Of a DNA stretch of 64,000 nt, positions 20,133 through 38,931 are shown one piece after another. A program made the translations under genes and the position numbers. Below the pieces are notes generated by a model. It made no database searches. It was given only the letters and a program-made list of their open reading frames with translations, and had not been told where the DNA came from. The stretch's first letter is position 1, and each line of letters starts with the position of its first letter. The stretch is from a virus: positions 32,001 to 96,000 of the IMG/VR virus record IMGVR_UViG_3300037993_001242; one strand, written 5' to 3'.

Positions 20133-21848
20133 CTAATCTTCGGCTTCGTCGGCAGCAACCTTGCGGTCGCCCCGGATGAAGTCGGCGATTACCGGCGGAG
20201 CCGACGCGTCGAAACCGACCACGTCCATGCCCCACTTGTCCTCCGGGTCGTTGACCGTGAAGTCGTTGGCGCAGGTACCCACGAACACTGACCGGGTATC
20301 CGGCACGAACTTTTCACGGTACTCCCGCAGGCGCAGAGTTGGATGCGGGCCTTGGTTGACCTCGCCGTCGGTCATAACGATCAGACCGCCGATCTTCAGA
20401 CGGTTTTGCAGTGCGTACTCGATTGCCAAGCTGATGTTGGTCGAACCGAAGTTGTTCACCTGTGCCCGACGGCACGCCGTTTCCAGCGTCATGCCCTTGC
20501 GGATGCCAAGCTCGCGGAAGGTATCCGCGAATCCGAAGATATGGCATTCCGGCTCGACGCTGGCGTGAACCAGCGACAGGGCGGCGACGGCCTCACACGA
20601 AGACAGGGGAGTTCCTGCCATCGCCGAGGACATCGAACCGGACACGTCCAGCGCGATCAACAGCGGCTTGCCGCACGGTTCAACGTTCGGGAACGCCGCG
20701 TAAAAGGCTTCGTCCAGCGCCGTCATGATTGACGGAACCGGCGTCCAGCTTAGCTTACCCTTGTCACCATGGCCTTGACCGTAAATCTTGGTCGCGATCA
20801 AGACCTGCATCGGGTGAACGCGTGACTTCTTCAGGAACGCGCCGTCCTGCAACCGCTTCTGGACGAGCTTGGTGGCTTCGCCCAGCGGCTTCAGGAGACC
20901 GAGGCTGGTCATCTTGCCAAGATTACGGATCGTCGCCGTCAACGGCATCTTCTGCAACAGGGCTTCCCAGACCGCGAGGCTGTTGAGCTTCTCGGTCGGT
21001 ACGGCCTCACGCGGCAGGTTGTGCTCGGTGATCAGCTTGACCAGCGCCTTTTCGTCGGCAGTCTTGGCTTCCTCGAACGCGCCGATGATGTCCGGCAGAT
21101 ACTTTTTGACGGAAGGATACTTCCGAATACGCGGGATGTCCGGTGCCATTGACTTCGGCAGGTTGGGAAACTTTCGGGTGACCTCGCGGGCACCCAGCGC
21201 GTCCTTGCCGCCGATGATCCAGCGGAAGACGGCCTGCTGTGCCTTGACCTCGGTGACCGGGTGGGCCACGCGAAGCACGTCACGAGCCGACCAGCCGTCG
21301 CGCTGCTGATACTTGACGACCTGCGCCGCCAAACGGTCAGCGGGCATGTCCGTGAACCAGCGGGCGATAGCGCGCCGGAAACCAGAGCCGCCGCCCCGCA
21401 TCGCCGAACAGTACTGCATGAAGTGGTACAGGTGCGTACCAATCCGGCAGACCTTCGGCAGCGCGGCATAAGCTGCCTGCCGGGCTTCCGCGTCACCGTG
21501 GGTGGCGACCAGCGCCAGTGCAAAAATGGCCGGGTCGTTCTTGTAGGCGCGTCCCTTGACGGACACATCTACAATCTCCTTGACCGTCCGCACACCGCTG
21601 GCCTTGATACACTGCAACACCGCGTCGTGGCCCTGCTTGAGCAAGTCCTTTTCGTCGATGTAATAGGTGCCGCCTTCGGTACCGAGAATCAAAAACCGCG
21701 CCAGCTTGTCCCAGATGCTGACCTTCCAGACGTACGCGCCGTCCGAGTCCTGAACCTGATTCTTGCCCGGCAACGGAGTGTATACAGAGGTCGTGCGCGA
21801 ACGCTTGGCTGACCGGGTGTCGAACTGCTTGGTGCTGATGAGTGCCAT
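20133..21848 (-). CDS. rsr: Ro60/TROVE-domain RNA-binding protein with C-terminal vWA
   Basis: LARFLILGTEGGTYY, KYQQRDGWSARDVLRVAHP, MPLTATIRNLGKMT, RVHPM, LIALDVSGSM (MIDAS), IVMTDGE, DVVGFDASAP; start MALISTK with AAGGA upstream. Confidence 0.95.
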   Translation of the reverse strand: MALISTKQFDTRSAKRSRTTSVYTPLPGKNQVQDSDGAYVWKVSIWDKLARFLILGTEGGTYYIDEKDLLKQGHDAVLQCIKASGVRTVKEIVDVSVKGRAYKNDPAIFALALVATHGDAEARQAAYAALPKVCRIGTHLYHFMQYCSAMRGGGSGFRRAIARWFTDMPADRLAAQVVKYQQRDGWSARDVLRVAHPVTEVKAQQAVFRWIIGGKDALGAREVTRKFPNLPKSMAPDIPRIRKYPSVKKYLPDIIGAFEEAKTADEKALVKLITEHNLPREAVPTEKLNSLAVWEALLQKMPLTATIRNLGKMTSLGLLKPLGEATKLVQKRLQDGAFLKKSRVHPMQVLIATKIYGQGHGDKGKLSWTPVPSIMTALDEAFYAAFPNVEPCGKPLLIALDVSGSMSSAMAGTPLSSCEAVAALSLVHASVEPECHIFGFADTFRELGIRKGMTLETACRRAQVNNFGSTNISLAIEYALQNRLKIGGLIVMTDGEVNQGPHPTLRLREYREKFVPDTRSVFVGTCANDFTVNDPEDKWGMDVVGFDASAPPVIADFIRGDRKVAADEAED

Positions 21849-21940
21849 ATCCTTGGAATGACAATCACACTCCAACTACGATGTGTTTTCGGGTTTTCAC
21901 CGTTGGCCCATGCCATGGGCCTGATTCTGTTTTTGTTGGA

Positions 21941-21963
21941 CGCAGGCAAGTTGGCGGCCTGCG
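21941..21963 (-). promoter_or_regulatory. Miniature Y-RNA-like bulged-C stem in the Ro60 leader
   Basis: Minus strand CGCAGGC-C-GCCAAC-TTGCCTGCG mirrors the GGGC-C-GA/TTGCCC stems of the Y RNAs. Confidence 0.45.
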
Positions 21964-21992
21964 AATGTCTACATTGCTGAGAACTGCATTTT

Positions 21993-22367
21993 TTAAGATT
22001 TGTTTACGAAAAAATTACAGGTTGACGTTGGCTCAACCCTGAACCGGTGTAAAAGGCATCTTGGCGGAAACCGATGCCAACCTTGTGCTTTTTTATAATA
22101 CACACAACAAATACATCCTAGTACGTCGCCCGGTGCCCGTTTTCTACTGGAACTAAGATAACCAACTTCTTCCTGTTGCCCGCGTTTGAACAATCTTTTG
22201 ACTGTGCCGACTGACCGCTGTTGAATTTTGGCTATCTTTACCCACGAAACTCCGGTTCTGCGAAGCTCGATAATGTAGGCCCAGCGCCGCCGCATCATTT
22301 TTCGGCCATTTTCAGGGGAAAGAATGCGCAGAACTTCTCGTTTGCTGACAACGTCTGGATCAAACAT
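21993..22367 (-). CDS. Helix-turn-helix protein
   Basis: LRRTGVSWVKIAKIQQRSVGTVKRLF. Confidence 0.6.
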   Translation of the reverse strand: MFDPDVVSKREVLRILSPENGRKMMRRRWAYIIELRRTGVSWVKIAKIQQRSVGTVKRLFKRGQQEEVGYLSSSRKRAPGDVLGCICCVYYKKAQGWHRFPPRCLLHRFRVEPTSTCNFFVNKS

Positions 22368-22380
22368 GCAGTAAATAAAA

Positions 22381-22517
22381 GCGGGCAAGGGTTTGGGTCG
22401 GAGATGGCTTTCGCCAAACCACTGCTCTGCCAATTGAGCTACCCCGGCATTTGCGCCGGAGGCTGGAATCGAACCAGCAACCAACGGTTTTATGATAACC
22501 AACCACAGTCGGCCCGC
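22381..22517 (-). ncRNA. Y RNA 1, YrlA-like with permuted tRNA module
   Basis: GCGGGCCGA...GGTTATC...T-arm GCTGGTTCGATTCCAGC, acceptor CTCCGGC/GCCGGGG closed by a loop, D-arm TAGCTCAATTGGCAGAGC...CCTTGCCCGC; ~530 nt upstream of Ro60, same strand. Confidence 0.85.
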
Positions 22518-22523
22518 TAAAGT

Positions 22524-22835
22524 TTATGGCCCGCGCAGGCGGTTTAACCGCCAATCAGTTGGTGTCGAATCCGCAATCTCTTCACCGCTGACTGTGCTGA
22601 TCGTGCCGTCTTCGTTATGCACGGTTAAAATTCTATTTTCGTAATCCCACTCCCAGCTTTCATCCCAATTACCGGTAGCACTACTGCTATCCCTGACCCA
22701 ACGCGCAATGCCGTCCAATTCAACCGCATGACTTGGCATCTGATTGTCCAGATGCTGAAGATAATCCTTCGGTCGAATCACATCAGGATCATCTTCCAGC
22801 AAAAAATCAACAAGCTGTTTTGGTGCCAAACCCAC
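22524..22835 (-). CDS. LLE-motif hypothetical protein
   Basis: LAPKQLVDFLLEDDPDVIRPKDYL; GTAGTTA upstream. Confidence 0.7.
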   Translation of the reverse strand: MGLAPKQLVDFLLEDDPDVIRPKDYLQHLDNQMPSHAVELDGIARWVRDSSSATGNWDESWEWDYENRILTVHNEDGTISTVSGEEIADSTPTDWRLNRLRGP

Positions 22836-22940
22836 GCCGTAACTACTAAAGGCACAGGCGGGGCGTTCTCATGGGGGTGGGAGCCACCACGCCCGAATCT
22901 CAGTTCCACCCTGAACTGCTTTCAATACCTGTGCCAAAAA

Positions 22941-23017
22941 TGGTGCCAAGGGCTGGTTTCGATCCAGCGACACCGACCTCTTCAGGGTCGTGCTCTACCA
23001 ATCTGAGCTACCTTGGC
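22941..23017 (-). tRNA. tRNA-Phe(GAA) copy 1
   Basis: Loop CTGAAGA; T-loop ATCGAAA. Confidence 0.9.
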
Positions 23018-23019
23018 AA

Positions 23020-23265
23020 TGGTGCTGTCTTGGAACCTTCAGCAGTGGGTCGCAGTTCCGCCGTTGCTTAAATAAGCCGCAGTACTAACGCTAATGAGCG
23101 TCTGGAACACACTGCGACCCCCAGTCACGCTATTGACGACAACTTGTACTTGTCTCCCACAACCGGGTCAGCGCATTCCGCTCAAGATGGTATTGGTATC
23201 AAGCCGTGGTAGTTTACGTGATTTTCCCACACTTACGGGCAGATTTTACGATCTGCAACAGCACC
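23020..23265 (-). ncRNA. Candidate structured ncRNA, ~245 nt, unknown class
   Basis: Ends pair (GGTGCTGTT/GACAGCACC); internal GGGTCGCAGT/ACTGCGACCC helix and several hairpins; no ORF. Confidence 0.5.
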
Positions 23266-23345
23266 AAAAATAACGTCCGGGAAGCCCTCAGAAAGGTCGG
23301 TGCGAACGACGCACCGTGATGTTAAAAACGAGCCACCCGGACACA

Positions 23346-23771
23346 TGGTGGAGGCGGCGAGAGTTGAACTCGCGTCTTTGACTCCGTTGCATGTTGCCAC
23401 TACACGCTTATCCCGTTTTGTACAAGCTCAGCCAGTTGGGCATCTATGTGAAAAAATCTGAGCAGGTTCGGTTGATCCAACCGTAGAAGCGCCGACATTG
23501 CTCGGCACTCACACGATCCTGCTGCATCGCTCGACCCGCCGTAGCAGGCATCCAGCGGCGAACGGTGTGGCGCTTTAGGCCACAGCAAGTTCGGCATTCA
23601 GGACGGCATCAGGGTTGGCGAAAATCGCTTCCGCCTGAGCCAGCAAGCCTGCCGGACAATCATTTGCTTCGTCAGCATTTGAGTTTTGATCCGAGTTTTT
23701 AGCGAGGCCAACGAATCATCCTCGGCGTGCAACAGCATACTTCAGTTTCAAATCGAAACCAGTACGCCCCC
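23346..23771 (-). ncRNA. ssrA: tmRNA
   Basis: 5' GGGGGCGTACTGGTTTCGA; 3' GCGAGTTCAACTCTCGCCGCCTCCACCA with G3-U70; tag frame 23575-23676 ADEANDCPAGLLAQAEAIFANPDAVLNAELAVA*. Confidence 0.93.
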
Positions 23772-23790
23772 ATTTCAAAGATCAAAAAAC

Positions 23791-23852
23791 GATGGGCAAG
23801 GTGGTGCAGGAAGGGTTGTCCAAGGATGATAACCTTCCAACTTCGGCCCATC
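23791..23852 (-). ncRNA. Y RNA 2, short (62 nt)
   Basis: GATGGGCCGA-AGTTGGAA-GGTTATC...CCTTGCCCATC. Confidence 0.75.
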
Positions 23853-23954
23853 AATTCGACCCGGCCCCGTCGTCAGTTCGTGCCGGAACGCACAAGAATG
23901 TCCATGCCCGGCTGATCAATTCCGGGCGCTGACCCAGTTGTACCTGTGCCAAAT

Positions 23955-24031
23955 TGGTTGCGGGGGAAGGATTCCAACCTCCGACCTCTTGGTTATGAGC
24001 CAAGCGCGCTTGCGGACTGCGCCACCCCGCG
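23955..24031 (-). tRNA. tRNA-fMet(CAT)
   Basis: C1:A72 mismatch, CGCGGGG acceptor; only two G-C pairs at the anticodon stem base; T-loop TTGGAAT. Confidence 0.85.
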
Positions 24032-24097
24032 ATCAAAAAGAACACGATATTTGTAATCCTGCTGATTAAAAACGTCAACAAAATTTTCACAGGAAAT

Positions 24098-24181
24098 TGG
24101 TCGGCGCGAAGGGACTTGAACCCCCAAGGATCACTCATTTTGAATGAGGTCAGTCTGCCATTCCTGATGAACCACGCGCCG
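24098..24181 (-). tRNA. tRNA-Leu(CAA)
   Basis: Loop TTCAAAA; expanded D region, short variable arm. Confidence 0.85.
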
Positions 24182-24185
24182 AAAA

Positions 24186-24494
24186 TCAATCTTCGCCGGT
24201 GACCTGCCGCAAAAGTTTTTTGGCGTAGTCCGCCGCGATCCACACTTCCGCTTCGTCGTCGTCGATGTAAACTTCAAAACCAACGTCGTTTTTATTGCAG
24301 TAGTCGTAGACCGCTTTAACCTCTGGATTGGTTTGGGCAATGTATTCGGCTACATAATCGGCAGCATAATTCCCGGCAAATCCGATTTTGCGCAAATCGA
24401 TTAGTTGGTCATACGTGGCCTGTTGAAACCACGGTTCAGCATCGAAGCTAACCTCCATGGCATTGTCATCGGATATGATTGTCGCCGGGATCAT
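24186..24494 (-). CDS. Hypothetical protein
   Basis: MIPATIISD...; GTATTTA 5 nt upstream. Confidence 0.65.
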   Translation of the reverse strand: MIPATIISDDNAMEVSFDAEPWFQQATYDQLIDLRKIGFAGNYAADYVAEYIAQTNPEVKAVYDYCNKNDVGFEVYIDDDEAEVWIAADYAKKLLRQVTGED

Positions 24495-24506
24495 CGTCTT
24501 AAATAC

Positions 24507-24591
24507 TGGTCGCCGGAGCGGGACTCGAACCCGCAAGGCTGCTGGATTTTAAGTCCAGTGGGTCTGCCAATTCCACCTTAACCACCCGGCG
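24507..24591 (-). tRNA. tRNA-Leu(TAA)
   Basis: Loop CTTAAAA; expanded D region, short variable arm. Confidence 0.85.
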
Positions 24592-24632
24592 AATACTCCA
24601 AAAAGTTTCTGATGAACGGAAGTAGTTAAGCC

Positions 24633-25646
24633 GTGAGAACAAAACACAAGATTCTGTTCATCCTGAAACGGCATCACTATGGGCCGTCCTACGGATTGCT
24701 GAATTCCTGCCAGTTCGTCGCCGAAGCTCTCCGCAGGGAAGGCGTCGAGACCAAAATCATCGAAGTTGTAGACAACAACAGCATTGACCGTGAAGTCACG
24801 CGCTATTTGCCGACGCACGTAATCATCGAAGCTTTGTGGGTTGTTCCCCAAAAATTTCCCGTCTTGCTCCAACTTCATCCCGCCATCCAGTGGGCCGTTC
24901 GCATTCACAGTAACGCACCGTTTCTTTCCGGCGAAGGCATGGCGCTGGAATGGCTGTACGGCTACGGCAAGGTGGCCAAAACTTTCAGTAATTTCCATGT
25001 CGGAGCCAACAGCCGCAAAATGTCCACGGAACTTGATCTGGCGTTGGGTATGGACTCCCTTTATCTGCCAAACATTTACACCGACAGCCTGACCCAGAAA
25101 CGACTGCCTCCGCCATTTGAAAAATCACATCAGGCGCACGTGAACATCGGCTGCTTTGGCGCGATCCGACCGCTCAAAAATCACTTGGAGCAGGCGCTGG
25201 CCGCGATTATTTTTGCCCGTTCAATTGGGCGGCCATTACGATTCCACATCAACGCCACCCGTGTTGAACAAAATTCCGATCCGATTTTGCGCAACTTGAT
25301 CAGCCTGTTCGCCCACGGGCCAAATCATTTGGTACAGCATCCGTGGATGCCGCACGATCAATTCATCGAAGTGCTGCGCCGCATGGATTATGGAATGCAG
25401 GTCAGTTTCTCGGAAACCTTCAACATCGTGGCCGCCGACTTCGTATACAACGAAATCCCGTTCGTTGGATCAAAGGAAATTGAATGGCTGGCATCCCACA
25501 GTATTGCCGATCCAACCAACTGGGAAAGCATTGTTGACCGGCTAAACCAAAGCTACTCGCACCACATCATTCACGAAAACAAACACGCCCTGCATTCTTT
25601 CAGTATTCAATCACTGAAAGAATGGCTGGAATACATCGACGATTAA
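24633..25646 (+). CDS. Glycosyltransferase, GT-B/GT4-like
   Basis: IGCFGAIRPLKN, MQVSFSETFNIVAAD. Confidence 0.75.
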   Translation: MRTKHKILFILKRHHYGPSYGLLNSCQFVAEALRREGVETKIIEVVDNNSIDREVTRYLPTHVIIEALWVVPQKFPVLLQLHPAIQWAVRIHSNAPFLSGEGMALEWLYGYGKVAKTFSNFHVGANSRKMSTELDLALGMDSLYLPNIYTDSLTQKRLPPPFEKSHQAHVNIGCFGAIRPLKNHLEQALAAIIFARSIGRPLRFHINATRVEQNSDPILRNLISLFAHGPNHLVQHPWMPHDQFIEVLRRMDYGMQVSFSETFNIVAADFVYNEIPFVGSKEIEWLASHSIADPTNWESIVDRLNQSYSHHIIHENKHALHSFSIQSLKEWLEYIDD

Positions 25647-25650
25647 AATT

Positions 25651-26445
25651 ATGGCCTTTAGACACAACACCAAATACGGCTGGCGGCGCGACCGCCCGGA
25701 CATCCGCGACTTCAAATTCGAGCGCATGGTCACGCTCAAAACCCTGCGCACCACGGCGCTTCCGGCGCACGTTTATCTGCGCCGTTTTTGCTCACAAATT
25801 ACAGATCAGGGCCAACTTGGGTCTTGCACTGCCAACGCATTGACCAATCTGCTGGAATACAACGAATGTGCCAACGGACGCGGCGGTAAACAGTTCAAGG
25901 ATTTGAGCCGTCTTTTTGTTTATTACAACGAACGGACACTGGAAGGTACTGCTGGTCAGGACGCCGGAGCCGAACTGCGTGATGGCATCAAATCATTGGC
26001 CACCTACGGGGTCTGCCCGGAAACCGAATGGCCTTACGTCGAAAATAAATTTGCCATGCCTCCCACGACACAATGCTACGGCGACGCCATTCCTTACAAA
26101 ATCCACAGCTACTACACCCTGAACACCCTTACTGACATGCGCGTTAGCTTGGCTAACGGCAATCCCTTCGTCTTCGGATTCACTGTATACGAATCGTTTG
26201 AATCTGACGAAGTCGCCAGCACCGGAATCGTCCAGATGCCCAAAGCGGGCGAACAAGTTTTAGGTGGTCATGCGGTCATGGCCATGGGCTACAACGACGC
26301 CCAGCAGCGGTTCCTCGTCAAAAACTCGTGGGGCAAAGACTGGGGTCTCAAAGGCGAATTGGGCGGCTATTTCACCTTGCCCTACGGCTATTTTACCGAC
26401 CCAAACCTGTCGTCCGACTTTTGGACGGTGGTCAAGGACATCTGA
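25651..26445 (+). CDS. Papain-like C1A cysteine peptidase
   Basis: DQGQLGSCTANA, GGHAV, KNSWGKDWG. Confidence 0.92.
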   Translation: MAFRHNTKYGWRRDRPDIRDFKFERMVTLKTLRTTALPAHVYLRRFCSQITDQGQLGSCTANALTNLLEYNECANGRGGKQFKDLSRLFVYYNERTLEGTAGQDAGAELRDGIKSLATYGVCPETEWPYVENKFAMPPTTQCYGDAIPYKIHSYYTLNTLTDMRVSLANGNPFVFGFTVYESFESDEVASTGIVQMPKAGEQVLGGHAVMAMGYNDAQQRFLVKNSWGKDWGLKGELGGYFTLPYGYFTDPNLSSDFWTVVKDI

Positions 26446-26448
26446 AAT

Positions 26449-26533
26449 TGGTGCCGGTGAAGGGACTCGAACCCCCAAGGCTGCGGCGTCCTAAGCGCCG
26501 TGGGTCTGCCAATTCCCCGTTAACCACACCGGC
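26449..26533 (-). tRNA. tRNA-Leu(TAG)
   Basis: Loop CTTAGGA. Confidence 0.85.
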
Positions 26534-26539
26534 ATAAAT

Positions 26540-26623
26540 TGGTCGCGCTGAGTGGACTTGAACCACCAAGGATCACCGCCTCTGAAGCGGGCCGGTCTGC
26601 CATTCCCGGTAAACCACAGCGCG
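26540..26623 (-). tRNA. tRNA-Leu(CAG)
   Basis: Loop TTCAGAG. Confidence 0.85.
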
Positions 26624-26635
26624 TAATTAAATCAG

Positions 26636-27244
26636 ATGAAACGAAATCCAAAGCCGCTGCCAGATCGTGGCGATCCGGCGCATGATCCGCATCTCCCGCA
26701 CACGACGCGGTATCAAAAACGCGACATTGAGCACCTGATCCCACCAGAAGCCAATGCCGTTATCGAGCAGCAGTGGCCGGAGGTTATTCGTACGTTCCAG
26801 CAATACGATGAAGGCGCTGGAATGCTGATGCTTTTTGGCCTCGTCCGCGACGCGTGCAAAGCAGCAAAGTGGCCTGACACCATGGCCTATCAGATGCGCG
26901 ATTATCTGCTCACCAAGCTCAATGCCGAAAAAGTCAAAACATACACCGGGAGCGATGACCGCCCCGGTGACTGGAAGGTTTTCAACATGAAAGAGTCCGC
27001 CGAACAAATTGTCGACCGTCTGCTGGAATACGGCCTACCCAATACTCCCACAAGCGCCGATCTTAAAATCGAAAATCACGGCAGCATCGTTTTGGTTCGG
27101 CCCTTAACCGACGCCGGTAAAGAAGGGCTGCGAAGAACCGCCCCTGAAGATGCACAATTCATGGGCGACGCCATGGCGGTCGAACCCCGCTACGTCGAAG
27201 GCGTCACTGACGCCGCGCAAGAGGATGGTCTGACCGTTTCGTAG
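26636..27244 (+). CDS. Hypothetical protein with internal LLE motif
   Basis: Internal ESAEQIVDRLLEYG; GTAATTA upstream. Confidence 0.7.
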   Translation: MKRNPKPLPDRGDPAHDPHLPHTTRYQKRDIEHLIPPEANAVIEQQWPEVIRTFQQYDEGAGMLMLFGLVRDACKAAKWPDTMAYQMRDYLLTKLNAEKVKTYTGSDDRPGDWKVFNMKESAEQIVDRLLEYGLPNTPTSADLKIENHGSIVLVRPLTDAGKEGLRRTAPEDAQFMGDAMAVEPRYVEGVTDAAQEDGLTVS

Positions 27245-27255
27245 TTAACATCGGT

Positions 27256-31066: not shown

Positions 31067-31150
31067 AAAGTGGGCAAAAATCGTCGGAGGACATTGACAG
31101 AAACGCTTAATAGGCATTTGTTGATAACCCTCAGACAGCGGCCCACAAAA

Positions 31151-31630: not shown

Positions 31631-31646
31631 GCAACAAAGAACAAAG

Positions 31647-31725: not shown

Positions 31726-31733
31726 AAATTAAA

Positions 31734-31797
31734 TACGGGCAAGGTGTCAGACTGGGATGGTTCATTTCAAGTGATAACCCAATCAATTCGGCCCGTA
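31734..31797 (-). ncRNA. Y RNA 3, short (64 nt)
   Basis: TACGGGCCGA-ATTGATTG-GGTTATC...CCTTGCCCGTA. Confidence 0.75.
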
Positions 31798-31800
31798 AAA

Positions 31801-32043
31801 TCATCGGCTGGTACCGAATATGACCGGCTGGCCGGTACCAAAGGGCGCACGTTCTTCGCTCGGCTGCGAAGCTTGTCCGGTCGGGCCAACCAGCACCGGC
31901 TGGCCCCATGGCTGGAACGTGCCGCGTAAAAACGGACTGCCAAAGCGTATACCAAGCTGCCGCCACGCATCGACCCAATCCGTGGCCGTGACCGACTGCG
32001 TGGCCTTGGTCTGGTAATTGTAAAACGTGAAGCTGTACAGCAC
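31801..32043 (-). CDS. Small hypothetical protein
   Basis: GTG start with GTAGTTA upstream; GQPV repeat. Confidence 0.5.
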   Translation of the reverse strand: MLYSFTFYNYQTKATQSVTATDWVDAWRQLGIRFGSPFLRGTFQPWGQPVLVGPTGQASQPSEERAPFGTGQPVIFGTSR

Positions 32044-32058
32044 GCCTTAACTACGAAA

Positions 32059-32137
32059 TGGCGGCCTGACGCTGGTTTTACTCCAGCGTGTTAGCCCGTC
32101 GCTCGTGCCCGTAAGCAGTTGCGTTGGGTTTCAGACC
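32059..32137 (-). other. tRNA-like element with intact acceptor/T-arm but scrambled D/anticodon region
   Basis: GGTCTGA/TCAGGCC-G-CCA, T-arm GCTGG-AGTAAAA-CCAGC; no anticodon hairpin found. Confidence 0.55.
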
Positions 32138-32141
32138 ATAA

Positions 32142-32218
32142 TGGTAGCCCGGATGGGTTTCGATCCCATGATCTCTGCCTTGAAGGGGCAGCGTGTTAGC
32201 CAGCTACACTACCGGGCC
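32142..32218 (-). tRNA. tRNA-Glu(TTC), C33, Asp-like body
   Basis: Loop CCTTCAA; T-loop ATCGAAA. Confidence 0.8.
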
Positions 32219-32224
32219 GTAAAA

Positions 32225-32301
32225 TGGTGCCAAGGGGTGGCTTCGATCCACCGACACAAAGATTTTCAGTCTTCTGCTCTACCGGGCTGAGCTACCTTGA
32301 C
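32225..32301 (-). tRNA. tRNA-Phe(GAA) copy 2
   Basis: Loop CTGAAAA; T-loop ATCGAAG. Confidence 0.9.
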
Positions 32302-32305
32302 AAAG

Positions 32306-32382
32306 TGGTCGTCACGGTTGGCTTCGATCCAACGGCCTGTCGGTTATCGACCGACTGCTCTACCGGGCTGAGCTACGTGACG
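32306..32382 (-). tRNA. tRNA-Ile(GAT), C33
   Basis: Loop TCGATAA; T-loop ATCGAAG. Confidence 0.85.
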
Positions 32383-32387
32383 AAATA

Positions 32388-32520
32388 TAACGGGCAAGGA
32401 TCGGCGTGGATGTTTTTAGCGCTCTACCGTTGAGCTATCCCGGCATTGGAGCCGGGAACAGGACTCGAACCTGTATCTCCTCATTAGCATTGAGATAACC
32501 CACAACACTTCGGCCCGTTA
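32388..32520 (-). ncRNA. Y RNA 4, YrlA-like with permuted tRNA module
   Basis: TAACGGGCCGAAGTGTTGTGGGTTATCTCAAT...T-arm ACAGGTTCGAGTCCTGT, TCCCGGC-TCCAAT-GCCGGGA, D-arm TAGCTCAACGGTAGAGC...CCTTGCCCGTTA. Confidence 0.85.
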
Positions 32521-32523
32521 AAA

Positions 32524-32611
32524 TGGCGGCGGGTAAAGGAATCCAACCTCTGCTGCTGTTACGCAGGCCACAGTTTTCGGAACTGGCACCTTAGCGCTCG
32601 GTCAACCCGCC
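32524..32611 (-). tRNA. tRNA-Ser(CGA), C33
   Basis: Loop TCCGAAA; long variable arm; T-loop TTGGATT. Confidence 0.85.
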
Positions 32612-32626
32612 AAAAATCAATTACGG

Positions 32627-32716
32627 TGGCGGAGGGGCAAGGATTTGAACCTTGGCACGTATTACCGTGGCCTCAACTTTCCAAGCTGGCACCTTACCGG
32701 ACTCGGTCAACCCTCC
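32627..32716 (-). tRNA. tRNA-Ser(GGA)
   Basis: Loop TTGGAAA; canonical T-loop TTCAAAT. Confidence 0.9.
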
Positions 32717-32718
32717 AC

Positions 32719-33072
32719 TCAGGCGATGATCGCGTACTGAAGCTCGTATCCGCGCTCTTTAACAAAATCATCAACTGCTTCCCGTTGCATGGGATTTAGT
32801 GCTTCCGTGTTAGCGTACATAACGCGCCGCTCCACCGTGGCACGCACCCAACCAAGCTGTTTCATGTGCGAATACACATTCATGACTTTAGGATTTTTGA
32901 TGACGTTCTCCTGTGCCCATTTTTGGTGGCCACCCACCTTGGTTATTTTGCCCTCTGGGCTGATCCAGTAATTGTCGGGCATAGGCTGCCACATGGTGCG
33001 CCCGTATACATCTTTACCGTAATCGATGCGCCCATATTCGAGCAGTGCGTCCACGACTTGTTTTGCGTCCAC
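32719..33072 (-). CDS. LLE-motif hypothetical protein
   Basis: GTG start VDAKQVVDALLEYGRI; GTAGTTA 4 nt upstream. Confidence 0.7.
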   Translation of the reverse strand: MDAKQVVDALLEYGRIDYGKDVYGRTMWQPMPDNYWISPEGKITKVGGHQKWAQENVIKNPKVMNVYSHMKQLGWVRATVERRVMYANTEALNPMQREAVDDFVKERGYELQYAIIA

Positions 33073-33087
33073 GTCGTAACTACAAAA

Positions 33088-33175
33088 TGGCGGAGGGTAC
33101 AGGGATTCAACCTGTGCCGGTTTTACCCGGTCGACGGTTTTCAAGACCGTAGCATTCGCGCTCTGCCAACCCTCC
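33088..33175 (-). tRNA. tRNA-Ser(TGA)
   Basis: Loop CTTGAAA; T-loop TTGAATC. Confidence 0.9.
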
Positions 33176-33176
33176 G

Positions 33177-33253
33177 TGGCGTCCCCGGCAGGAGTCCAAC
33201 CTGCGACACAGTCGTTTAGGAAACGACGGCTCTTGCAACTGAGCTACGGGGAC
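33177..33253 (-). tRNA. tRNA-Arg(CCT)
   Basis: Loop TTCCTAA; T-loop TTGGACT. Confidence 0.9.
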
Positions 33254-33257
33254 AAAA

Positions 33258-33875
33258 TCAAGTGACCAGATAACCACCACGCAGGAAACCGTGCCAGCCG
33301 CCACACACGATTGATCCGGCACCGGCGGCGCAGGTGTTCCCGTTCTTGTCTACGGTCAAATCTGGCGCAATGCCATGGCGCACCCAACATTCGTGCGGTT
33401 CCTTGGGCCGGGTGCAGTTGGAAGCCTGACTGTCAATCGACCACTCGCCGCCCGGCGTCCGGCAGACATAGTAATGCCCGTCCGAGCGTTTATAGCTGTC
33501 CGGCATCCACGCGGCGTCCCAGATAGCCCCCACGGGCGGCTGGCGCAGCGATGCAAGCTCCTGCGTGTCCGAACGCTGGTACAGCCGGTCGTAATTGACC
33601 TGCCATTCGTCACTTTCCAGAAACACATAGCCGCAGGCACATTGGCGGGGCCAGCGGAGATCATCGTGCGGAAACTGTTTCTCGTCATCGCCGCACGTCG
33701 GATGCTCGGCGTATTCAATCTTGGGATTGATTTCGGTGCTCACGTCGTGGTAGCCCTGTGGCAACGGGCATGGATTTTTGGGCGTATCCTCGCGCCAGTC
33801 CGACCGATACCGGCGCAGGGACAGGTTGTAAAAATTTGTGGGCGTCAGCAGAAAGCAACGGATCGGTTTACACAT
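33258..33875 (-). CDS. Cys/His/Trp-rich hypothetical protein
   Basis: CACG, CRTPGGEWSIDSQASNC...HECWVRHG...CGGWHGFL. Confidence 0.7.
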   Translation of the reverse strand: MCKPIRCFLLTPTNFYNLSLRRYRSDWREDTPKNPCPLPQGYHDVSTEINPKIEYAEHPTCGDDEKQFPHDDLRWPRQCACGYVFLESDEWQVNYDRLYQRSDTQELASLRQPPVGAIWDAAWMPDSYKRSDGHYYVCRTPGGEWSIDSQASNCTRPKEPHECWVRHGIAPDLTVDKNGNTCAAGAGSIVCGGWHGFLRGGYLVT

Positions 33876-33914
33876 GCCTTAAATACCGGCGATTATGACT
33901 GTATTTAGGTAGCT

Positions 33915-34373
33915 ATGATGCCTGAAAGTCGTTCGATTGCGCTTCAGCTTGCGCAGCGGTTCGTCGAATACAAGGACAGGATCGAGGAGGTTGCCGCGCA
34001 GGTGCGCCGCCACAAACGAATCCTCGATCTTTGCCCGGTGCCGATGTTTTTGACGGATGAACACGGGAAATGCGTCTACGTCAATCCCGCCAAACTCAAA
34101 CTCGTCGGGGGCACCCTTGGCGAAATGCAGTACGACGGTTGGCAGCACTTTGTTTACCCGGAAGACCTGCCCCACTTGCTGAACGCGTGGACTCAATTCG
34201 TTTTAGACCACAACCAGCACACTTTTTCGTATACGTACCGGTATCAGCGCGCTGATGGCTCGGTGCTGGAAGTTGTGACCGAAGCCAGAATGCTGGACGA
34301 CCACAGCATTGTCGGTTTTGTGCTGCCCGTGAAATGCAGCGGCTGTTTCGATTTTTTCACTGTACACGGATAA
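33915..34373 (+). CDS. Stand-alone PAS-domain protein
   Basis: MFLTDEHGKCVYVNPA...GWQHFVYPEDL...YRYQRADGS. Confidence 0.85.
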   Translation: MMPESRSIALQLAQRFVEYKDRIEEVAAQVRRHKRILDLCPVPMFLTDEHGKCVYVNPAKLKLVGGTLGEMQYDGWQHFVYPEDLPHLLNAWTQFVLDHNQHTFSYTYRYQRADGSVLEVVTEARMLDDHSIVGFVLPVKCSGCFDFFTVHG

Positions 34374-34447
34374 TGCCTTTTTCATTTGGTGTATTTACTC
34401 CACAAGGTGTTTTTCCTTGAAGTTAAAATACGCAAAATCCATATAAA

Positions 34448-34903
34448 ATGAACAACATAATCAAAGCAACAACTGTCGGTTTGATCTGCACTGCGTCGCT
34501 GCTGGTCTGTCCGCTGTCCACGAAGGCGCAGTTCGTAACCAATCTCGTCACCTTCAGCAATGTGGTCATTCGGTCATCATCAGATGTCACCGGCCCTTAC
34601 ACTAATTTGTTTACGTTGCCGGATGTTACCCTTGAGTACCGGTATCACGTGGGATCGCTTCAACCGTTTTTTTATCATTTTAAGCTGAGCACGCCGGTCA
34701 TTGATGCTGATCTGTTTGAAACCAGCTTGACGCTCCAATATGCCTTCAATGCGGGCGGCCCTTACGATGACATTTATACTTATCCAACCATTGCTGTTAC
34801 CAATCCGGCAGGAAACGCCTTTTTCCGTTCTGCTTTCGATTTGACCGACACTAATTTTGTGTTCGTTGACCCTTACACCGTTCAGTTTGTACCGCCGCCA
34901 TAA
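34448..34903 (+). CDS. Secreted protein
   Basis: Signal peptide ending AKA/Q-like; SSSDVTGPYTNL and NAFFRS motifs. Confidence 0.7.
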   Translation: MNNIIKATTVGLICTASLLVCPLSTKAQFVTNLVTFSNVVIRSSSDVTGPYTNLFTLPDVTLEYRYHVGSLQPFFYHFKLSTPVIDADLFETSLTLQYAFNAGGPYDDIYTYPTIAVTNPAGNAFFRSAFDLTDTNFVFVDPYTVQFVPPP

Positions 34904-34906
34904 AAT

Positions 34907-34983
34907 TGGCACTCCCGGCAGGATTCCAACCTGCGACCTTGAATTTAGAAAATTCCTGCTCTATGCAACTGAGCTACGGGAGC
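34907..34983 (-). tRNA. tRNA-Arg(TCT)
   Basis: Loop TTTCTAA; T-loop TTGGAAT. Confidence 0.9.
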
Positions 34984-34987
34984 AAAA

Positions 34988-35015
34988 ACGCGCAGCCGAA
35001 TCAACGGCTGCGCGT
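34988..35015. terminator. Bidirectional terminator
   Basis: ACGCGCAGCCG-aatcaa-CGGCTGCGCGT flanked by A runs. Confidence 0.65.
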
Positions 35016-35035
35016 AAAATAGGCACAGCAACGAG

Positions 35036-35923
35036 TCAAGGTGAAGCTAACCTGTAAAATTTATGTGGTACTGACGGGGAAGCAGGAATAATGACTCCTG
35101 ATGCCGAAGTCATCGTCGTCGCGTAACCATCACTATTAGTCACTGTATATCCACATGAGCCATTGGTCACGATTGGAATCCCTTGTGAATCATACACGAC
35201 GTAAACGATATTAGCCAATTTAGACGCACTATAGCCAAAATACGTACCCCAATCAGAAACTGGTTGGGATACCCAGTTGGGAATAGACGTATAGCTTACC
35301 CAACCGGTGGCCGAATAAATTTCCTGACTCCATTGTACCAAATCAGTGGTGGACTCAAGATGTGCCGTGGTCATGGGATTGCCCTGTGTATCAAGGATTC
35401 CGGCCCGTGGAACAAAATTGGTAAAAGTGGTGCTGAATGACCAAATGTAAATGTTCGTCTGCCAGTCAGTCCATCCATTGTCAATGGCGCTCCAATAGTA
35501 AACAGTAGAATTGTTGGTCGCTATCAGGGCTTGACTGCTGTTGGTCTGGCCACTATTCTCCGCTGCCGGTTGCATTATAGCCTGCTGTTTAAGCAGGGGA
35601 GGGAAAAACGGCGGCATTGGAGGGAAAAACGGCGGTGGTGGAGGCGCTGGAGTCGGGGGCGGCTGCGCCGGAGTCGGTGCCGGAGTCGCTGGCGCAGACG
35701 GAAGACAACTGTTCAACCACATTACAAGGACTACGCCGCCTGCCGTTACAATCACTATCATAATTGCACCACATATTTGCACCGTTTGGTTGGGCTGTAC
35801 GGGGTTAGCCGCAAGCTGTTTGTTGGTATTCTCAGCATACACAGGCAGTATAAGCAGGATGACCATGAGGCTGACTGCGATCAAACGACACATTATTGAT
35901 TGAGTGAATTTTGATGTTTTCAT
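35036..35923 (-). CDS. Membrane/secreted protein with Pro-rich linker
   Basis: Two hydrophobic segments, PPPPPP linker, LESTTDLVQWS, C-terminal KFYRLASP. Confidence 0.7.
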   Translation of the reverse strand: MKTSKFTQSIMCRLIAVSLMVILLILPVYAENTNKQLAANPVQPNQTVQICGAIMIVIVTAGGVVLVMWLNSCLPSAPATPAPTPAQPPPTPAPPPPPFFPPMPPFFPPLLKQQAIMQPAAENSGQTNSSQALIATNNSTVYYWSAIDNGWTDWQTNIYIWSFSTTFTNFVPRAGILDTQGNPMTTAHLESTTDLVQWSQEIYSATGWVSYTSIPNWVSQPVSDWGTYFGYSASKLANIVYVVYDSQGIPIVTNGSCGYTVTNSDGYATTMTSASGVIIPASPSVPHKFYRLASP

Positions 35924-35927
35924 AGAC

Positions 35928-36173
35928 TTACTTTTTGAGCAATGCTGCGAGCGCCATCAAGAAACAGCCTGCATTCACACAGTGAAGACCAATCTGACCG
36001 ACTTTGGGTGAAACCCACGGGGAGACAAAAAACCCCACTATTAGAATGTAAGCAATCCAGCAGGCAGTAAATATGACAAGCCGATTTTGGTGCTCCTTAC
36101 ACCAATTTCCGTAAGCTTGCCATCCGCGTTGGAGCGGCGCACGCACCGACCTGATTAGTTTTTCAGGTTTCAT
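35928..36173 (-). CDS. Small membrane protein
   Basis: Two hydrophobic helices; sigma70-like promoter upstream. Confidence 0.55.
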   Translation of the reverse strand: MKPEKLIRSVRAPLQRGWQAYGNWCKEHQNRLVIFTACWIAYILIVGFFVSPWVSPKVGQIGLHCVNAGCFLMALAALLKK

Positions 36174-36266
36174 ACCCAAACTGTATGCGTCCAACAGGCG
36201 ATTGTCAACAGGAAATTACAAGACTGTAAGCATACGGTGTAAACGATTTGTATACAATAAGTTAAA

Positions 36267-36342
36267 TGGCTCCAGAGGCTGGGCACGATCCAGCAACATC
36301 CCGGTTAACAGCCGGGTACTCTACCAATTGAGCTACTCTGGA
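36267..36342 (-). tRNA. tRNA-Asn(GTT)
   Basis: Loop CTGTTAA; T-loop ATCGTGC. Confidence 0.9.
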
Positions 36343-36445
36343 ATAAAAAGCTTTTCAGCGACGGCAGTGCCTATGCCTGCGGCCCTGTAGGGGCGGCTTT
36401 GCACACAGTAGGCTTGCCGTGTGCAATCTTTACGCCGCTGAAAAA

Positions 36446-36518
36446 TGGTCGCGCCGGACGGAGTTGAACACGTCATCTCGCACTTCCGGGTGCCGCTCTA
36501 ACATTAAGCTACGGCGCG
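36446..36518 (-). tRNA. Degenerate Pro-like tRNA with 6-nt anticodon loop
   Basis: CGCGCCG/CGGCGCG-A-CCA acceptor; GCAC-CCGGAA-GTGC; bulged T-stem. Confidence 0.55.
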
Positions 36519-36526
36519 TTTTAAAA

Positions 36527-36602
36527 TGGTCGGGACAACCGGGCACGATCCGGCAACCTCTCGGCCCCAAACCGAGCGCTCTACCAATTGAGCTATGCCC
36601 CG
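36527..36602 (-). tRNA. tRNA-Pro(TGG)
   Basis: Loop TTTGGGG; T-loop ATCGTGC. Confidence 0.9.
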
Positions 36603-36796
36603 TCAGCAATGTAAAAATTGTTTTCTTCTCGCGGACATTCCTCATTCAAAAGAACCAAGCATCGCCGTATGCTTACATCGGACGTTCCATAACTTTCCGT
36701 GCAATGATCGCAGCGAGAACACGTCACAATAACGCTTGGTACCGGCCCGTGATCACCGTCCAATTCTGTTTCTTCAACAGTACATTCAACACGCAT
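36593..36796 (-). CDS. Small Cys-rich hypothetical protein
   Basis: VTCSRCDH...IRRCL...ECPREENNFY. Confidence 0.55.
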   Translation of the reverse strand: MRVECTVEETELDGDHGPVPSVIVTCSRCDHCTESYGTSDVSIRRCLVLLNEECPREENNFYIADGA

Positions 36797-36814
36797 ACAG
36801 CGTAGAACTGAAAA

Positions 36815-36891
36815 TGGTCTGGGTGACAGGCTTCGATCCTGCAACCTCGTGTACCCGAAACACGCGCTCTACCAGATTGAGCTACACCCAG
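36815..36891 (-). tRNA. tRNA-Pro(CGG)
   Basis: Loop TTCGGGT; T-loop ATCGAAG. Confidence 0.9.
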
Positions 36892-36900
36892 TTGAAATGG

Positions 36901-37200
36901 TCAGTCAATGATGACCGGAGAATCTGAATTAAGCCATGCAAAAAGAGTTGATCCTTTGTGCTGCTGAATAAGCAAACGCGACTGATGCCCGCAGCACGAG
37001 CAGTCAAAATTGATTATTATTGCGTTTCTACGCCCCTGCATTTTTGTTTCTGGAACTGCCTCACTTTTTGGAGGATACGTACCTTGGATGGTCATCTTAA
37101 TTCCGTCGCCATCTTCAAAATGGGGTCTCTCATATATTTCGATCATGCTGTGGTGCATGTCGGCTGTTTCCCGACAGTTTGGACAAGCTAGTGCGTTCAT
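36901..37200 (-). CDS. Zn-ribbon hypothetical protein
   Basis: CPNC...CSCC, QHKGST; CGTTCTT upstream. Confidence 0.65.
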   Translation of the reverse strand: MNALACPNCRETADMHHSMIEIYERPHFEDGDGIKMTIQGTYPPKSEAVPETKMQGRRNAIIINFDCSCCGHQSRLLIQQHKGSTLFAWLNSDSPVIID

Positions 37201-37220
37201 ACGCCCACAAGAACGTAAAA

Positions 37221-37297
37221 TGGTCGGGATGACGGGCTTCGATCCCGTGACCTCCAGTCCCCCAGACTGGCGCGCTACCTGACTGCGCTACATCCCG
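37221..37297 (-). tRNA. tRNA-Pro(GGG)
   Basis: Loop CTGGGGG; T-loop ATCGAAG. Confidence 0.9.
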
Positions 37298-37298
37298 G

Positions 37299-37586
37299 TT
37301 AAGATTTGGTTGGTATGGCATCAGCCAGCCGCGCCAAAACATCACCATGACAGGGCATCGGCCAGCACCAGCAACCCAACGTTTTGTCCTTCAATTCGTG
37401 CAGGCTGGCCAACAACTCTGGCTGAGTTTTAATCCAGTCTTCATACATGGCGATGACTTCGTCGCGGGTGCCGTCGGCTCCGATCCGGTAGGGGTTGCCC
37501 CACTTTGAACCTTCTGGAAAATCACGCGTACCTCGTCCGATGTATACATCGAATTTACTGTGCTTGCAATGGACAACTTTAGTCAT
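37299..37586 (-). CDS. DUF4326-like protein
   Basis: DVYIGRG, SKWGNPY, LKDKTLGCWCWPMPCHGDVL. Confidence 0.85.
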   Translation of the reverse strand: MTKVVHCKHSKFDVYIGRGTRDFPEGSKWGNPYRIGADGTRDEVIAMYEDWIKTQPELLASLHELKDKTLGCWCWPMPCHGDVLARLADAIPTKS

Positions 37587-37761
37587 ACTCCACAAGAACC
37601 AAAAGTTCCCCAAGCGGCAGGAGCACCGCCCGCCCGCGTTACTTCGTCACTGCCTGACTAACAGACCGTTGCGATGCTCAGCTTGGGTAAATTGGCGGCC
37701 CTCGATATTACGGCGGCTGCGCCGCCACAAGAAGTGGCCACTTCTTGTATCTCAGGCCAAA

Positions 37762-37839
37762 TGGCGGGACGTACGGGCTTCGATCCCGTGACCTTCCGGT
37801 AGACAGCCGGTTGCTCTAGCCAGACTGAGCTAACGTCCC
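37762..37839 (-). tRNA. tRNA-Asp(GTC)
   Basis: Loop CTGTCTA; T-loop ATCGAAG. Confidence 0.9.
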
Positions 37840-37844
37840 AAAAA

Positions 37845-38150
37845 TTATGATCCGACGAGTTCGTCAGTGCCTTCCCACGTAAACTCCGAAACCGGCAGGT
37901 GCATTCCACACTGACAACAGTAGGTCGCACCGTAAAATTTTGGGTCGCGAGCGTAAGTTTCAGCGATGGCCAAGGCCATGGTCGTTTTCGCCCGGCAGGT
38001 ATTGTGGATGTACGACTGACGTACCGGTCGAATGAATCCTTTGGCGCGCTCCTCTTCGGACAGCACGAGGTATTTTTTCATCTGCGGTGTCGGCACTTTG
38101 TCCGCACCGTATCCTAAATCGGGGTCTTTTGGATCAGTTGTCAAACTCAT
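37845..38150 (-). CDS. Hypothetical Cys-containing phage protein
   Basis: True start MSLTTDPKDP (GTAGTTA upstream); GFIRPVRQSYIH..C...TYCCQCG. Confidence 0.7.
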   Translation of the reverse strand: MSLTTDPKDPDLGYGADKVPTPQMKKYLVLSEEERAKGFIRPVRQSYIHNTCRAKTTMALAIAETYARDPKFYGATYCCQCGMHLPVSEFTWEGTDELVGS

Positions 38151-38231
38151 ACCTTTAACTACGTTGGCGGGCTTGGCTGTTAATTCAGCCCGTAGCGCGC
38201 CACGCGGCGGATCAGGCCGCAAGCCCATAAA

Positions 38232-38322
38232 TGGTGGCAACGGCTGGAGTCGAACCAGCGGTGTTTTCCTCTTGGGTAGCGCTTTTACAGAGCGTTGTCT
38301 TCGCCACTTGACGCACGTTGCC
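38232..38322 (-). tRNA. tRNA-Tyr(GTA)
   Basis: Loop CTGTAAA, long variable arm; canonical T-loop TTCGACT. Confidence 0.9.
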
Positions 38323-38333
38323 GTATTTAAAAC

Positions 38334-38846
38334 ATGAAAATCATTTACGCTATGGTTGTGGCTCTTGTCCTGACTGGCTGTGCAACTCAGCGGGGATTCC
38401 CGCCGAATAACGGCATCGGCAACTTTGACCGCTTGGACGACAAAGTCTATCGCGGCGCACAACCCTCGCACGAAGCCATTGCCAAACTGGCAAAAGCTGG
38501 CGTGACCAGAGTAATCAATCTCCGCCTGCCCGGCGATACGGCACCGTACGAAAAATCGGCGTGTCGGGCCGAAGGCATCGAATACTTCAACGTACCCATT
38601 GGTGGTTTTTCCGCTCCCACTGATGCCCAAGTACACCGGGTATTTTCTTTGATTGAGACCGCCCATGGGCCGGTCTACATCCATTGCCAGTGGGGCTGTG
38701 ACCGCACCGGAACCATGTGCGCCTGCTGGCGAATCCATCACGATGGCTGGAGCAATGCACAGGCACTACAGGAAGCCGTCATTTACGGCCTGTCACCTTG
38801 GGAACAGAGCATGAGGTACTACATCCTGCATTACCACGAAAAATAA
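38334..38846 (+). CDS. Dual-specificity/tyrosine phosphatase with lipoprotein signal
   Basis: Lipobox LVLTGC; YRGAQP; P-loop HCQWGCDRTG. Confidence 0.85.
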   Translation: MKIIYAMVVALVLTGCATQRGFPPNNGIGNFDRLDDKVYRGAQPSHEAIAKLAKAGVTRVINLRLPGDTAPYEKSACRAEGIEYFNVPIGGFSAPTDAQVHRVFSLIETAHGPVYIHCQWGCDRTGTMCACWRIHHDGWSNAQALQEAVIYGLSPWEQSMRYYILHYHEK

Positions 38847-38931
38847 CGGGCAAGGTTTTGGCATCGGGTATGCTGGGTTTCCCCGGCGGTTTGTATCAAT
38901 AACAAGATAACCGACAGTCCATTCGGCCCGT
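38846..38931 (-). ncRNA. Y RNA 5 (86 nt)
   Basis: ACGGGCCGA-ATGGACTGTC-GGTTATC...CCTTGCCCGT. Confidence 0.75.

Follow-up and report, generated by a model that had tools for sequence, protein, structure and literature searches.

The stretch of phage DNA analyzed here, a 64-kb segment hereafter called the window, belongs to IMG/VR record IMGVR_UViG_3300037993_001242, a viral record of 199,098 bp from peat soil that is estimated to be 82% complete. Between positions 18370 and 42307 its minus strand carries an array of about 40 tRNA genes and one transfer-messenger RNA (tmRNA) gene (23346-23771), as predicted by ARAGORN and Rfam. This region also contains a gene for a homolog of the RNA-binding protein Ro60 and, embedded in the array, six short elements that very probably, judging from their sequence, encode Ro60-binding Y RNAs.

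The Ro60 gene (20133-21875, minus strand) is a 580-amino-acid open reading frame (ORF) listed with a TTG start codon, and the true start may lie further in. Pfam models detect a TROVE domain (1e-39) and a vWA_Ro60 domain (2e-38), and the gene is the single TROVE gene of the whole 199-kb record. The predicted protein aligns end to end with Xenopus Ro60 (1YVP; 1e-106, 360.8 bits), its best match among solved structures, followed slightly behind by Deinococcus Rsr (2NVO; 6e-101, 341.8 bits). Human RO60 (9NEN) is also among the best solved relatives, and the structure of the Ro60 of Thermus phage phiLo is absent from the PDB matches at E ≤ 0.001. With a TROVE domain, predicted to form the HEAT-repeat ring, and a C-terminal vWA domain whose MIDAS motif (DVSGSMS) is intact, the protein has the characters by which Ro60/TROVE proteins are recognized. 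An earlier note on this DNA had described the gene as complete and as lying about 530 nucleotides (nt) downstream of the first element; the gene is indeed complete, and the distance amounts to 506 nt.

Five of the six elements share a motif pair by which they had been noticed before. The pattern GGGCCGA-N6-12-GGTTATC matches exactly five times in the window, always on the minus strand and at the positions reported earlier, and never in 100 shuffled sequences; these five matches are also all that the entire record contains. The spacing between the two motifs is 8, 8, 8, 9, and 10 nt, and the 3' end of each copy reads CCTTGCCC. As had been proposed, the ends of all five pair as GGGC[C]GA/UUGCCC, with the bracketed C bulged, and the helix continues outward by 2-4 further pairs that differ in each copy (AGC/GCU, UGAU/AUCG, UAC/GUA, UAAC/GUUA, and AC/GU). 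A covariance model built from ten compact elements, R1, recovers all five motif copies and adds a sixth (31068-31148, minus strand), which raises the number of copies from the five reported to six. The motif pattern missed this copy because it reads GGGCCGC at the respective position; its ends pair as GGGC[C]G/UGCCC. Its landmarks are, in order, GUGGGCCGC, GAGGGUUAUCA, CCUCCGAC, and UUGCCCAC, with GGGUUAUCA as the middle landmark between the first and the last of these. R1 assigns it 20.6 bits (E 0.002-0.03), and none of 200 shuffled versions folds as stably (z -2.94).

The interiors of the elements had been thought to differ completely. Instead, they fall into three architectural classes with two members each, all on the minus strand. 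Y RNA 1 (22381-22517; YrlA model 39.9 bits, E 8e-6; R1 37.8 bits, E 1e-6) and Y RNA 4 (32388-32520; YrlA 35.9 bits; R1 30.4 bits) are of the YrlA type, in which a tRNA module runs from the T arm through an acceptor-like stem to the D arm. This module is present in copies 1 and 4 and absent from copies 2, 3, 5, and 6 according to sequence, predicted fold, and cmscan alignment. Y RNA 1 consists of the Ro-docking stem, UUAUC, the T arm, a 7-bp acceptor-like stem with a closing loop, the D arm, and an extra GAAA hairpin. Y RNA 4 likewise has the T arm, a 7-bp acceptor stem, and the D arm, and the loop closing its acceptor stem encodes U-CCA. The mini type is represented by Y RNA 2 (23791-23852; 56-nt core; R1 62.1 bits), whose upper stem is GGAAGG/CCUUCC, and by Y RNA 3 (31734-31797; 58-nt core; R1 65.2 bits), whose upper stem is GAUUGGG/CCCAGUC. 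The medium type, of 81-86 nt and with an extra hairpin, comprises Y RNA 5 (38846-38931; 82-nt core; R1 39.5 bits), in which this hairpin is internal, and the diverged Y RNA 6, the copy added by R1. Independent metagenomes of peat and wetland yielded contigs that show no difference from the window at several Y loci. Thus, the elements are not assembly artefacts; being identical over the Y loci they cover, these contigs are silent on selection. The "tRNA-Ser gct" called by ARAGORN at 32447-32514 is the miscalled tRNA module of Y RNA 4.

One line of evidence that these elements are Y RNAs comes from covariation in their stems. A motif-anchored test was applied to 25 elements from 10 viral contigs, with permuted partners as control. 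On average, the 5' strand of the upper stem forms more pairs with the 3' strand of the same element (6.52 bp) than with permuted partners (4.30 ± 0.24 bp; 0 of 20,000 permutations reached the observed value), and the terminal extension behaves in the same way (2.4 versus 0.81 bp). A model-based alignment of 38 sequences (A3) gave a concordant picture: 90.1% of the paired cells are occupied by pairs as opposed to 72.2% after shuffling, compensatory changes on both sides were counted in 106 versus 33 cells, and the covariation score of 0.518 was not reached in any of 500 shuffles (0.194 for the shuffled alignment), slid controls remaining at or below 0.105. Both-side changes occur in 9 of the 14 pairs, and even core pairs switch, from GC to AU in five sequences and from CG to UA in four. 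The bulged C is invariant in all 38 sequences and the neighboring G-U pair is kept in 34 of them. Two MAFFT alignments (A1 and A2) were set aside, as they misplaced the 3' strand of the variable upper stem. The search of related phage contigs with a covariance model, which the earlier note had suggested as a check together with covariation in the terminal stem, thus yielded homologs in which both stems covary.

The docking module that emerges from these comparisons is known from animals and from Deinococcus. It consists of GGGC/GCCC, the bulged C, the G-U and A-U pairs, an asymmetric internal loop, and a variable upper stem whose last pairs, immediately before UUAUC, are G-C. Its specificity was assessed by scanning bacterial contigs, one genome per species, with a 21-base pattern of three parts (the 5' strand of the handle, GGTTATC, and the 3' strand of the handle). 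This signature occurs at 112 bacterial loci, 60 of which also contain a Ro60 homolog (≤8 kb), and all 66 elements of these 60 loci lie 19-1808 nt from the Ro60 gene. The remaining 52 loci mostly lack the stem extension, as expected of chance matches. As a positive control, R1 also finds the Y RNA family of Deinococcus, RF01053, at a place where this family's own Rfam score exceeds the gathering threshold. Hence, the docking module is supported by covariation, and in both bacteria and phages it goes specifically with Ro60 genes. Together with the invariant bulged C and the G-U pair, this supports the proposal, made when the elements were first noticed, that they are genes of the Y RNA type with a Ro60-docking helix. 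A pattern scan of viral sequences returned 119 loci that are mostly chance matches, and six of them (L022, L040, L048, L053, L068, and L121), in which the two stems are absent, were dropped.

The bacterial loci show the ancestral form of the arrangement. In a Deinococcus locus the genes are ordered Y, tRNA, Y, tRNA, Yrn1, tRNA, and loci of Anaerolineae and Armatimonadota contain five and four R1 matches, respectively. The view that bacteria usually have one or two Y RNAs does not hold in light of the three to five R1 matches found in several bacterial loci. Some of the short Y RNAs linked to bacterial Ro60 genes even exceed the gathering score of 38 of RF01656, the nematode stem-bulge RNA family (39.3-41.9 bits; L196 2070-2139, L198 5455-5520, L215 7143-7208 and 7229-7302), so that an automated annotation with Rfam might list them as RNAs of nematodes.

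The established family models recognize the elements of the window less readily. At gathering thresholds, Rfam finds tRNAs and the tmRNA in the window and no Y family. The 39.9 and 35.9 bits of copies 1 and 4 do not reach the gathering score of 69 of the YrlA family (RF02553). Two cultured phages, Essence (36.1 bits) and Cashline (42.2 bits), have YrlA-type RNAs next to Ro60 that score alike and are also far under 69 bits, which indicates that this threshold is too strict for phage members. RF01656 scores copy 2 with 34 and copy 3 with 28.7 bits, below its gathering score as well. In the alignment, copy 3 and the RF01656 consensus have CGG.CCG, UGGGUUAUCA, UCCCA, and CUUG.CCGU in common. By sequence, these RF01656 scores denote resemblance, not membership. 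The Deinococcus family RF01053 itself has no match in the window. The Rfam searches that had been called for thus point to the YrlA and stem-bulge families by scores below their gathering values, with no match from the vertebrate model. The suggestion that the RNAs are metazoan-like, which had leaned on a sequence given for human Y5, is upheld in part, by the RF01656 scores and the UUAUC motif rather than by that sequence; the vertebrate Y_RNA model (RF00019) is silent, and the likeness to animal Y RNAs is not special to the phage because the short bacterial Y RNAs linked to Ro60 have it too.

Two further candidates were considered in these searches. A stretch at 39546-39672 (minus strand) scores 27.4 bits with the YrlA model and was rejected as a family member; it has no handle motifs, no UUAUC, and no R1 match even with the filters off. 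Its tRNA-like parts are a T arm, a loop-closed acceptor stem, and a D arm, and it is located downstream of a DUF7873 gene (40018-40782, minus strand; Pfam 4.6e-64). A weak R1 match (E 0.27) lies outside the window, at G000:114701-114755.

Most of the elements are tightly fitted into the tRNA array, which is about 24 kb long and places Y RNAs up to 17 kb from the Ro60 gene. Y RNA 4 is separated by 6 nt from a tRNA detected by Rfam (32527-32611) and by 5 nt from tRNA-Ile, tRNA-Arg(ccg) and tRNA-Arg(gcg) enclose Y RNA 6 and leave 2 and 1 nt free, Y RNA 5 starts 4 nt past tRNA-Trp, and the end of Y RNA 2 is followed after 19 nt by the tmRNA gene. Thus, four of the six copies have a tRNA or tmRNA gene at a distance of 1-19 nt, and every copy is followed on its 3' side by an A/T-rich spacer like those after the tRNAs. 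With the array mapped and a single TROVE gene in the record, the earlier picture of Y RNA genes dispersed inside the tRNA array of a phage with one Ro60 is confirmed. The same placement could also be expected if the elements punctuated the tRNA transcripts structurally, for instance as hairpins for processing or for blocking exonucleases, or if they were a dispersed repeat whose function is unrelated to Ro60. A plain hairpin, however, needs neither an invariant bulged C nor a conserved G-U pair nor UUAUC, and such an origin would leave unexplained why the interiors are unrelated while the stems covary, why bacterial phyla that are far apart have the signature close to Ro60 genes, and why two copies contain YrlA-type modules recognized by Rfam. 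We therefore regard this explanation as extremely improbable.

Several features of the array itself deserve mention. Besides the tRNA next to Y RNA 4 (38.7 bits), Rfam finds two tRNAs that ARAGORN also missed, at 36449-36518 (36 bits) and 26452-26533 (35.1 bits), all on the minus strand. The tmRNA gene (minus strand) scores 113.5 bits, and its predicted tag peptide is unusually long, with 33 residues. Non-coding stretches are found at 23020-23265 and 23853-23954 (minus strand), between tRNA-Phe, the tmRNA, Y RNA 2, and tRNA-Met. At 24123-24544, 420 bases are replaced by 20 other letters in contigs from three independent metagenome runs, and both ends of this segment are inside weak tRNA-like matches (24101-24181 and 24517-24579). 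By sequence, the difference looks like a population indel within the tRNA array. An ORF for a papain-family cysteine protease (25651-26445; Peptidase_C1, 9e-14) lies within the tRNA region on the opposite, plus strand.

Other phages illuminate how widespread this layout is. The closest relative by Ro60 (L001; 62% identity) has the tandem order tRNA-Met, mini Y, mini Y, YrlA type, Ro60, and three small phages (G003, G004, and G006) have two to four copies beside Ro60. In the complete 465-kb genome G001, at least seven Y copies reside in a tRNA array and Ro60 is more than 120 kb away, and in L131 the Y copies are 2-3 nt from tRNA-Met and tRNA-Lys. Sinorhizobium phage Phosso, which is cultured and has a genome of 469 kb, carries two unannotated Y RNAs (PV764938.1 420436-420500 and 420664-420735, corresponding to L257 6437-6501 and 6665-6736; R1 69.2 and 31.6 bits). 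They sit in the slots between tRNA-Gly and tRNA-Asp and between tRNA-Arg and tRNA-Leu, and both are about 130 kb from the annotated Ro-like gene. The dispersal of Y RNAs in tRNA slots thus recurs in three other large phages.

Distances of 120-130 kb, as in G001 and Phosso, raise the question of whether such RNAs act on the phage Ro60 at all. They might instead serve a host Ro60 (Rsr) or function with no Ro60, for example as sponges, in which case the co-occurrence with the phage gene would be incidental. One 277-kb record (G002), in which no TROVE gene was found, would agree with this idea, but that record is only 60% complete. In the window, however, copy 1 is located directly upstream of the phage Ro60 gene, smaller relatives have their Y RNAs in tandem right beside Ro60, and the signature is tightly linked to Ro60 in the 60 bacterial loci. 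Furthermore, a host Rsr cannot be assumed. An action independent of the phage Ro60 thus appears quite improbable, and a phage-encoded Ro60/Y RNA system, in which one Ro60 and six Y RNAs work as alternative particles, is probably the best overall explanation of the locus.

Comparison with described Ro60/Y RNA systems supports this explanation and shows where the window departs from them. A survey by Chen et al. (2014, PMC4201824) reported 355 YrlAs for 254 bacteria and 22 phages and confined itself to those no more than 4 kb from Ro60. In the words of its authors, the short Y RNAs "eluded bioinformatic discovery." The YrlA/YrlB and Rsr systems have in common with the window a Ro60 with several Y RNAs nearby, one class in YrlA order, and the GNCGAA motif. 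The window differs from the survey in having six copies, five of which lie 1.9-17 kb from Ro60 among tRNAs; of the two YrlA-type copies, copy 1 (0.5 kb) is within the 4-kb limit and copy 4 (10.5 kb) is outside it. The elements of the window also keep both strands of the animal-type helix and UUAUC, in place of which CUA stands in the YrlA consensus of Rfam. Copies 1 and 4 have a 7-bp acceptor stem, as does the YrlA of M. smegmatis, which is cut by RNase P and receives a CCA end (PMC4201824). Deinococcus radiodurans Yrn1 and Yrn2 (RF01053) resemble the window in that the metazoan-type helix keeps both its strands and Y RNAs are interleaved with tRNAs. Binding of the Deinococcus Y RNA by Rsr has been established experimentally, Rsr protects G7, G8, C9, G11, and A12 of the analogous helix, and Yrn2, tRNA-Asp, and Yrn1 are made as a single precursor (PMC4201824). 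Compared with the Deinococcus RYPER system, which involves PNPase, the window represents a phage with a ~24-kb array and ~40 tRNAs, and no PNPase was found in its record.

The only phage for which binding has been demonstrated is Thermus phage phiLo, whose Ro60 binds two phage Y-like RNAs and forms complexes with host PNPase (PMC12135203; PDB 9KOP, 9L5Y; 2025). Like the window, phiLo combines a phage Ro60 with phage Y-like RNAs. Unlike in the window, its two RNAs are directly upstream of the gene, its protein is distant, and no embedding in a tRNA array has been described. Vertebrate Y RNAs and stem-bulge RNAs (sbRNAs) share with the window a lower stem with the bulged C next to a G-U pair, additional unpaired bases in the 3' strand, G-C pairs at the top of the upper stem, and a loop that opens with UUAUC. 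Published work treats UUAUC in this position, at the 5' end of the loop, as a hallmark of both groups and ties it to DNA replication activity in vitro (PMC4450293, PMC4726728). Animal Y RNAs differ in their RNA polymerase III context and in lacking tRNA modules, which two copies of the window carry.

These comparisons suggest how the system might operate. The Y RNAs may be transcribed together with the tRNAs and excised by RNase P and RNase Z/E, and each would then attach by its stem to the outside of the ring formed by the phage Ro60, so that its variable part would set the activity of the particle. The YrlA-type RNAs may be aimed at tRNA-handling factors. Given their 7-bp acceptor stems, one with an encoded CCA, they would likely be cut by RNase P and bound by factors that bind tRNA. 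The hairpins of the mini and medium types might control access to the Ro60 cavity, or they might link the ring to a host exoribonuclease (for example PNPase), in the manner of Deinococcus RYPER and phiLo. Such tethering to host nucleases, proposed by analogy, we consider about evenly balanced between being right and wrong. No polynucleotide-kinase-type partner was found among the partner families searched in the record. With no partner enzyme encoded there, the effectors would be host proteins. By analogy with the described systems, the particles would likely monitor or turn over structured RNA while the phage infects its host, chiefly the many tRNAs that the phage itself produces; a strictly tRNA-specific role is a tentative and rather doubtful suggestion. 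That the particles constitute a programmable ribonucleoprotein system, as the earlier note envisaged, is conjecture.

The tRNA-like modules of copies 1 and 4 also lend themselves to another explanation. These two RNAs might mainly be decoys or sensors for host defenses that cut or modify tRNAs, with Ro60 only stabilizing them and the short copies being accessory. Their intact T and D loops, the 7-bp acceptor stems with one encoded CCA, and their position among ~40 phage tRNAs would suit this role. The YrlA domain is moreover a true and close mimic of tRNA structure whose partner is unknown (10.1101/312249), and Ro/TROVE proteins of jumbo phages have been grouped with RNA-repair systems (PMC7824862). 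On the other hand, anticodon nucleases usually target the anticodon arm, which these modules lack, and four of the six copies have no tRNA module at all. RNA ligase, RtcB, and a polynucleotide-kinase-type partner were searched for and not found in the record, and the same RNA types adjoin Ro60 in free-living bacteria. A predominant function as decoys is therefore unlikely.

Several observations weigh against the proposed Ro60/Y RNA system itself. Every Rfam Y-family score in the window is under the respective gathering score, and RF00019 gives nothing at E ≤ 10, even on an 841-nt stretch searched with lax filters. Copy 6 is weak by its R1 score and has no A-U pair, and copies 1 and 3 are not adjacent to tRNAs. 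As the 38-sequence alignment was fitted to R1, its counts lean toward the model, and kinship among the sequences inflates the shuffle tests. Scans for promoters and terminators did not rise above chance; a terminator-like hairpin 14 nt past the Ro60 stop codon (20088-20119, minus strand; 14 pairs, of which 9 are G-C, followed by a T run) is a consensus match only. RtcB, RNA_ligase, PolyA_pol/CCA-adding, and RNase_PH/PNPase families were not found in the 82%-complete record, and the effector step is therefore drawn from analogy.

Interest in Ro60 and Y RNAs has come mainly from their part in lupus and Sjogren autoimmunity; what they basically do is a matter of continuing debate. Part of what the window contains is already known, namely the combination of phage Ro60 and Y RNAs (22 phages, PMC4201824; phiLo, PMC12135203; jumbo phages, PMC7824862), the presence of multiple Y RNAs per genome, and their co-transcription with tRNA. 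Three aspects were not found in the literature searched: Y RNAs in tRNA-sized slots of phage tRNA arrays and unlinked from Ro60, six copies of three classes in a single phage, and a class of short Y RNAs, widely distributed among phages and bacteria, in which the animal-type helix has both its strands and UUAUC is kept. This short class has no Rfam family, except for the cross-match of the nematode family RF01656. The handle signature and a small covariance model find short Y RNAs in many bacterial phyla and phages. Since Y RNAs can occupy tRNA slots far from Ro60, searches restricted to the neighborhood of Ro60 undercount them.

The layout of the locus ties the function of Ro60 to the production of tRNA. 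Phosso shares this layout and is cultured on a tractable host, which makes binding, processing, and phenotype directly testable. A more far-reaching proposal, which at present is speculative and distinctly unlikely, is that large tRNA-rich phages use Ro60 and 6-8 Y RNAs issued from their arrays for dedicated quality control or protection of the tRNA pool. As part of the same proposal, the conservation of UUAUC and of the handle with its G-U pair and bulged C from phages and bacteria to animals would mean that UUAUC is an ancient element of Ro60 particles and not a replication motif specific to eukaryotes. If this were true, the role of UUAUC in animal Y RNAs would need to be read anew.

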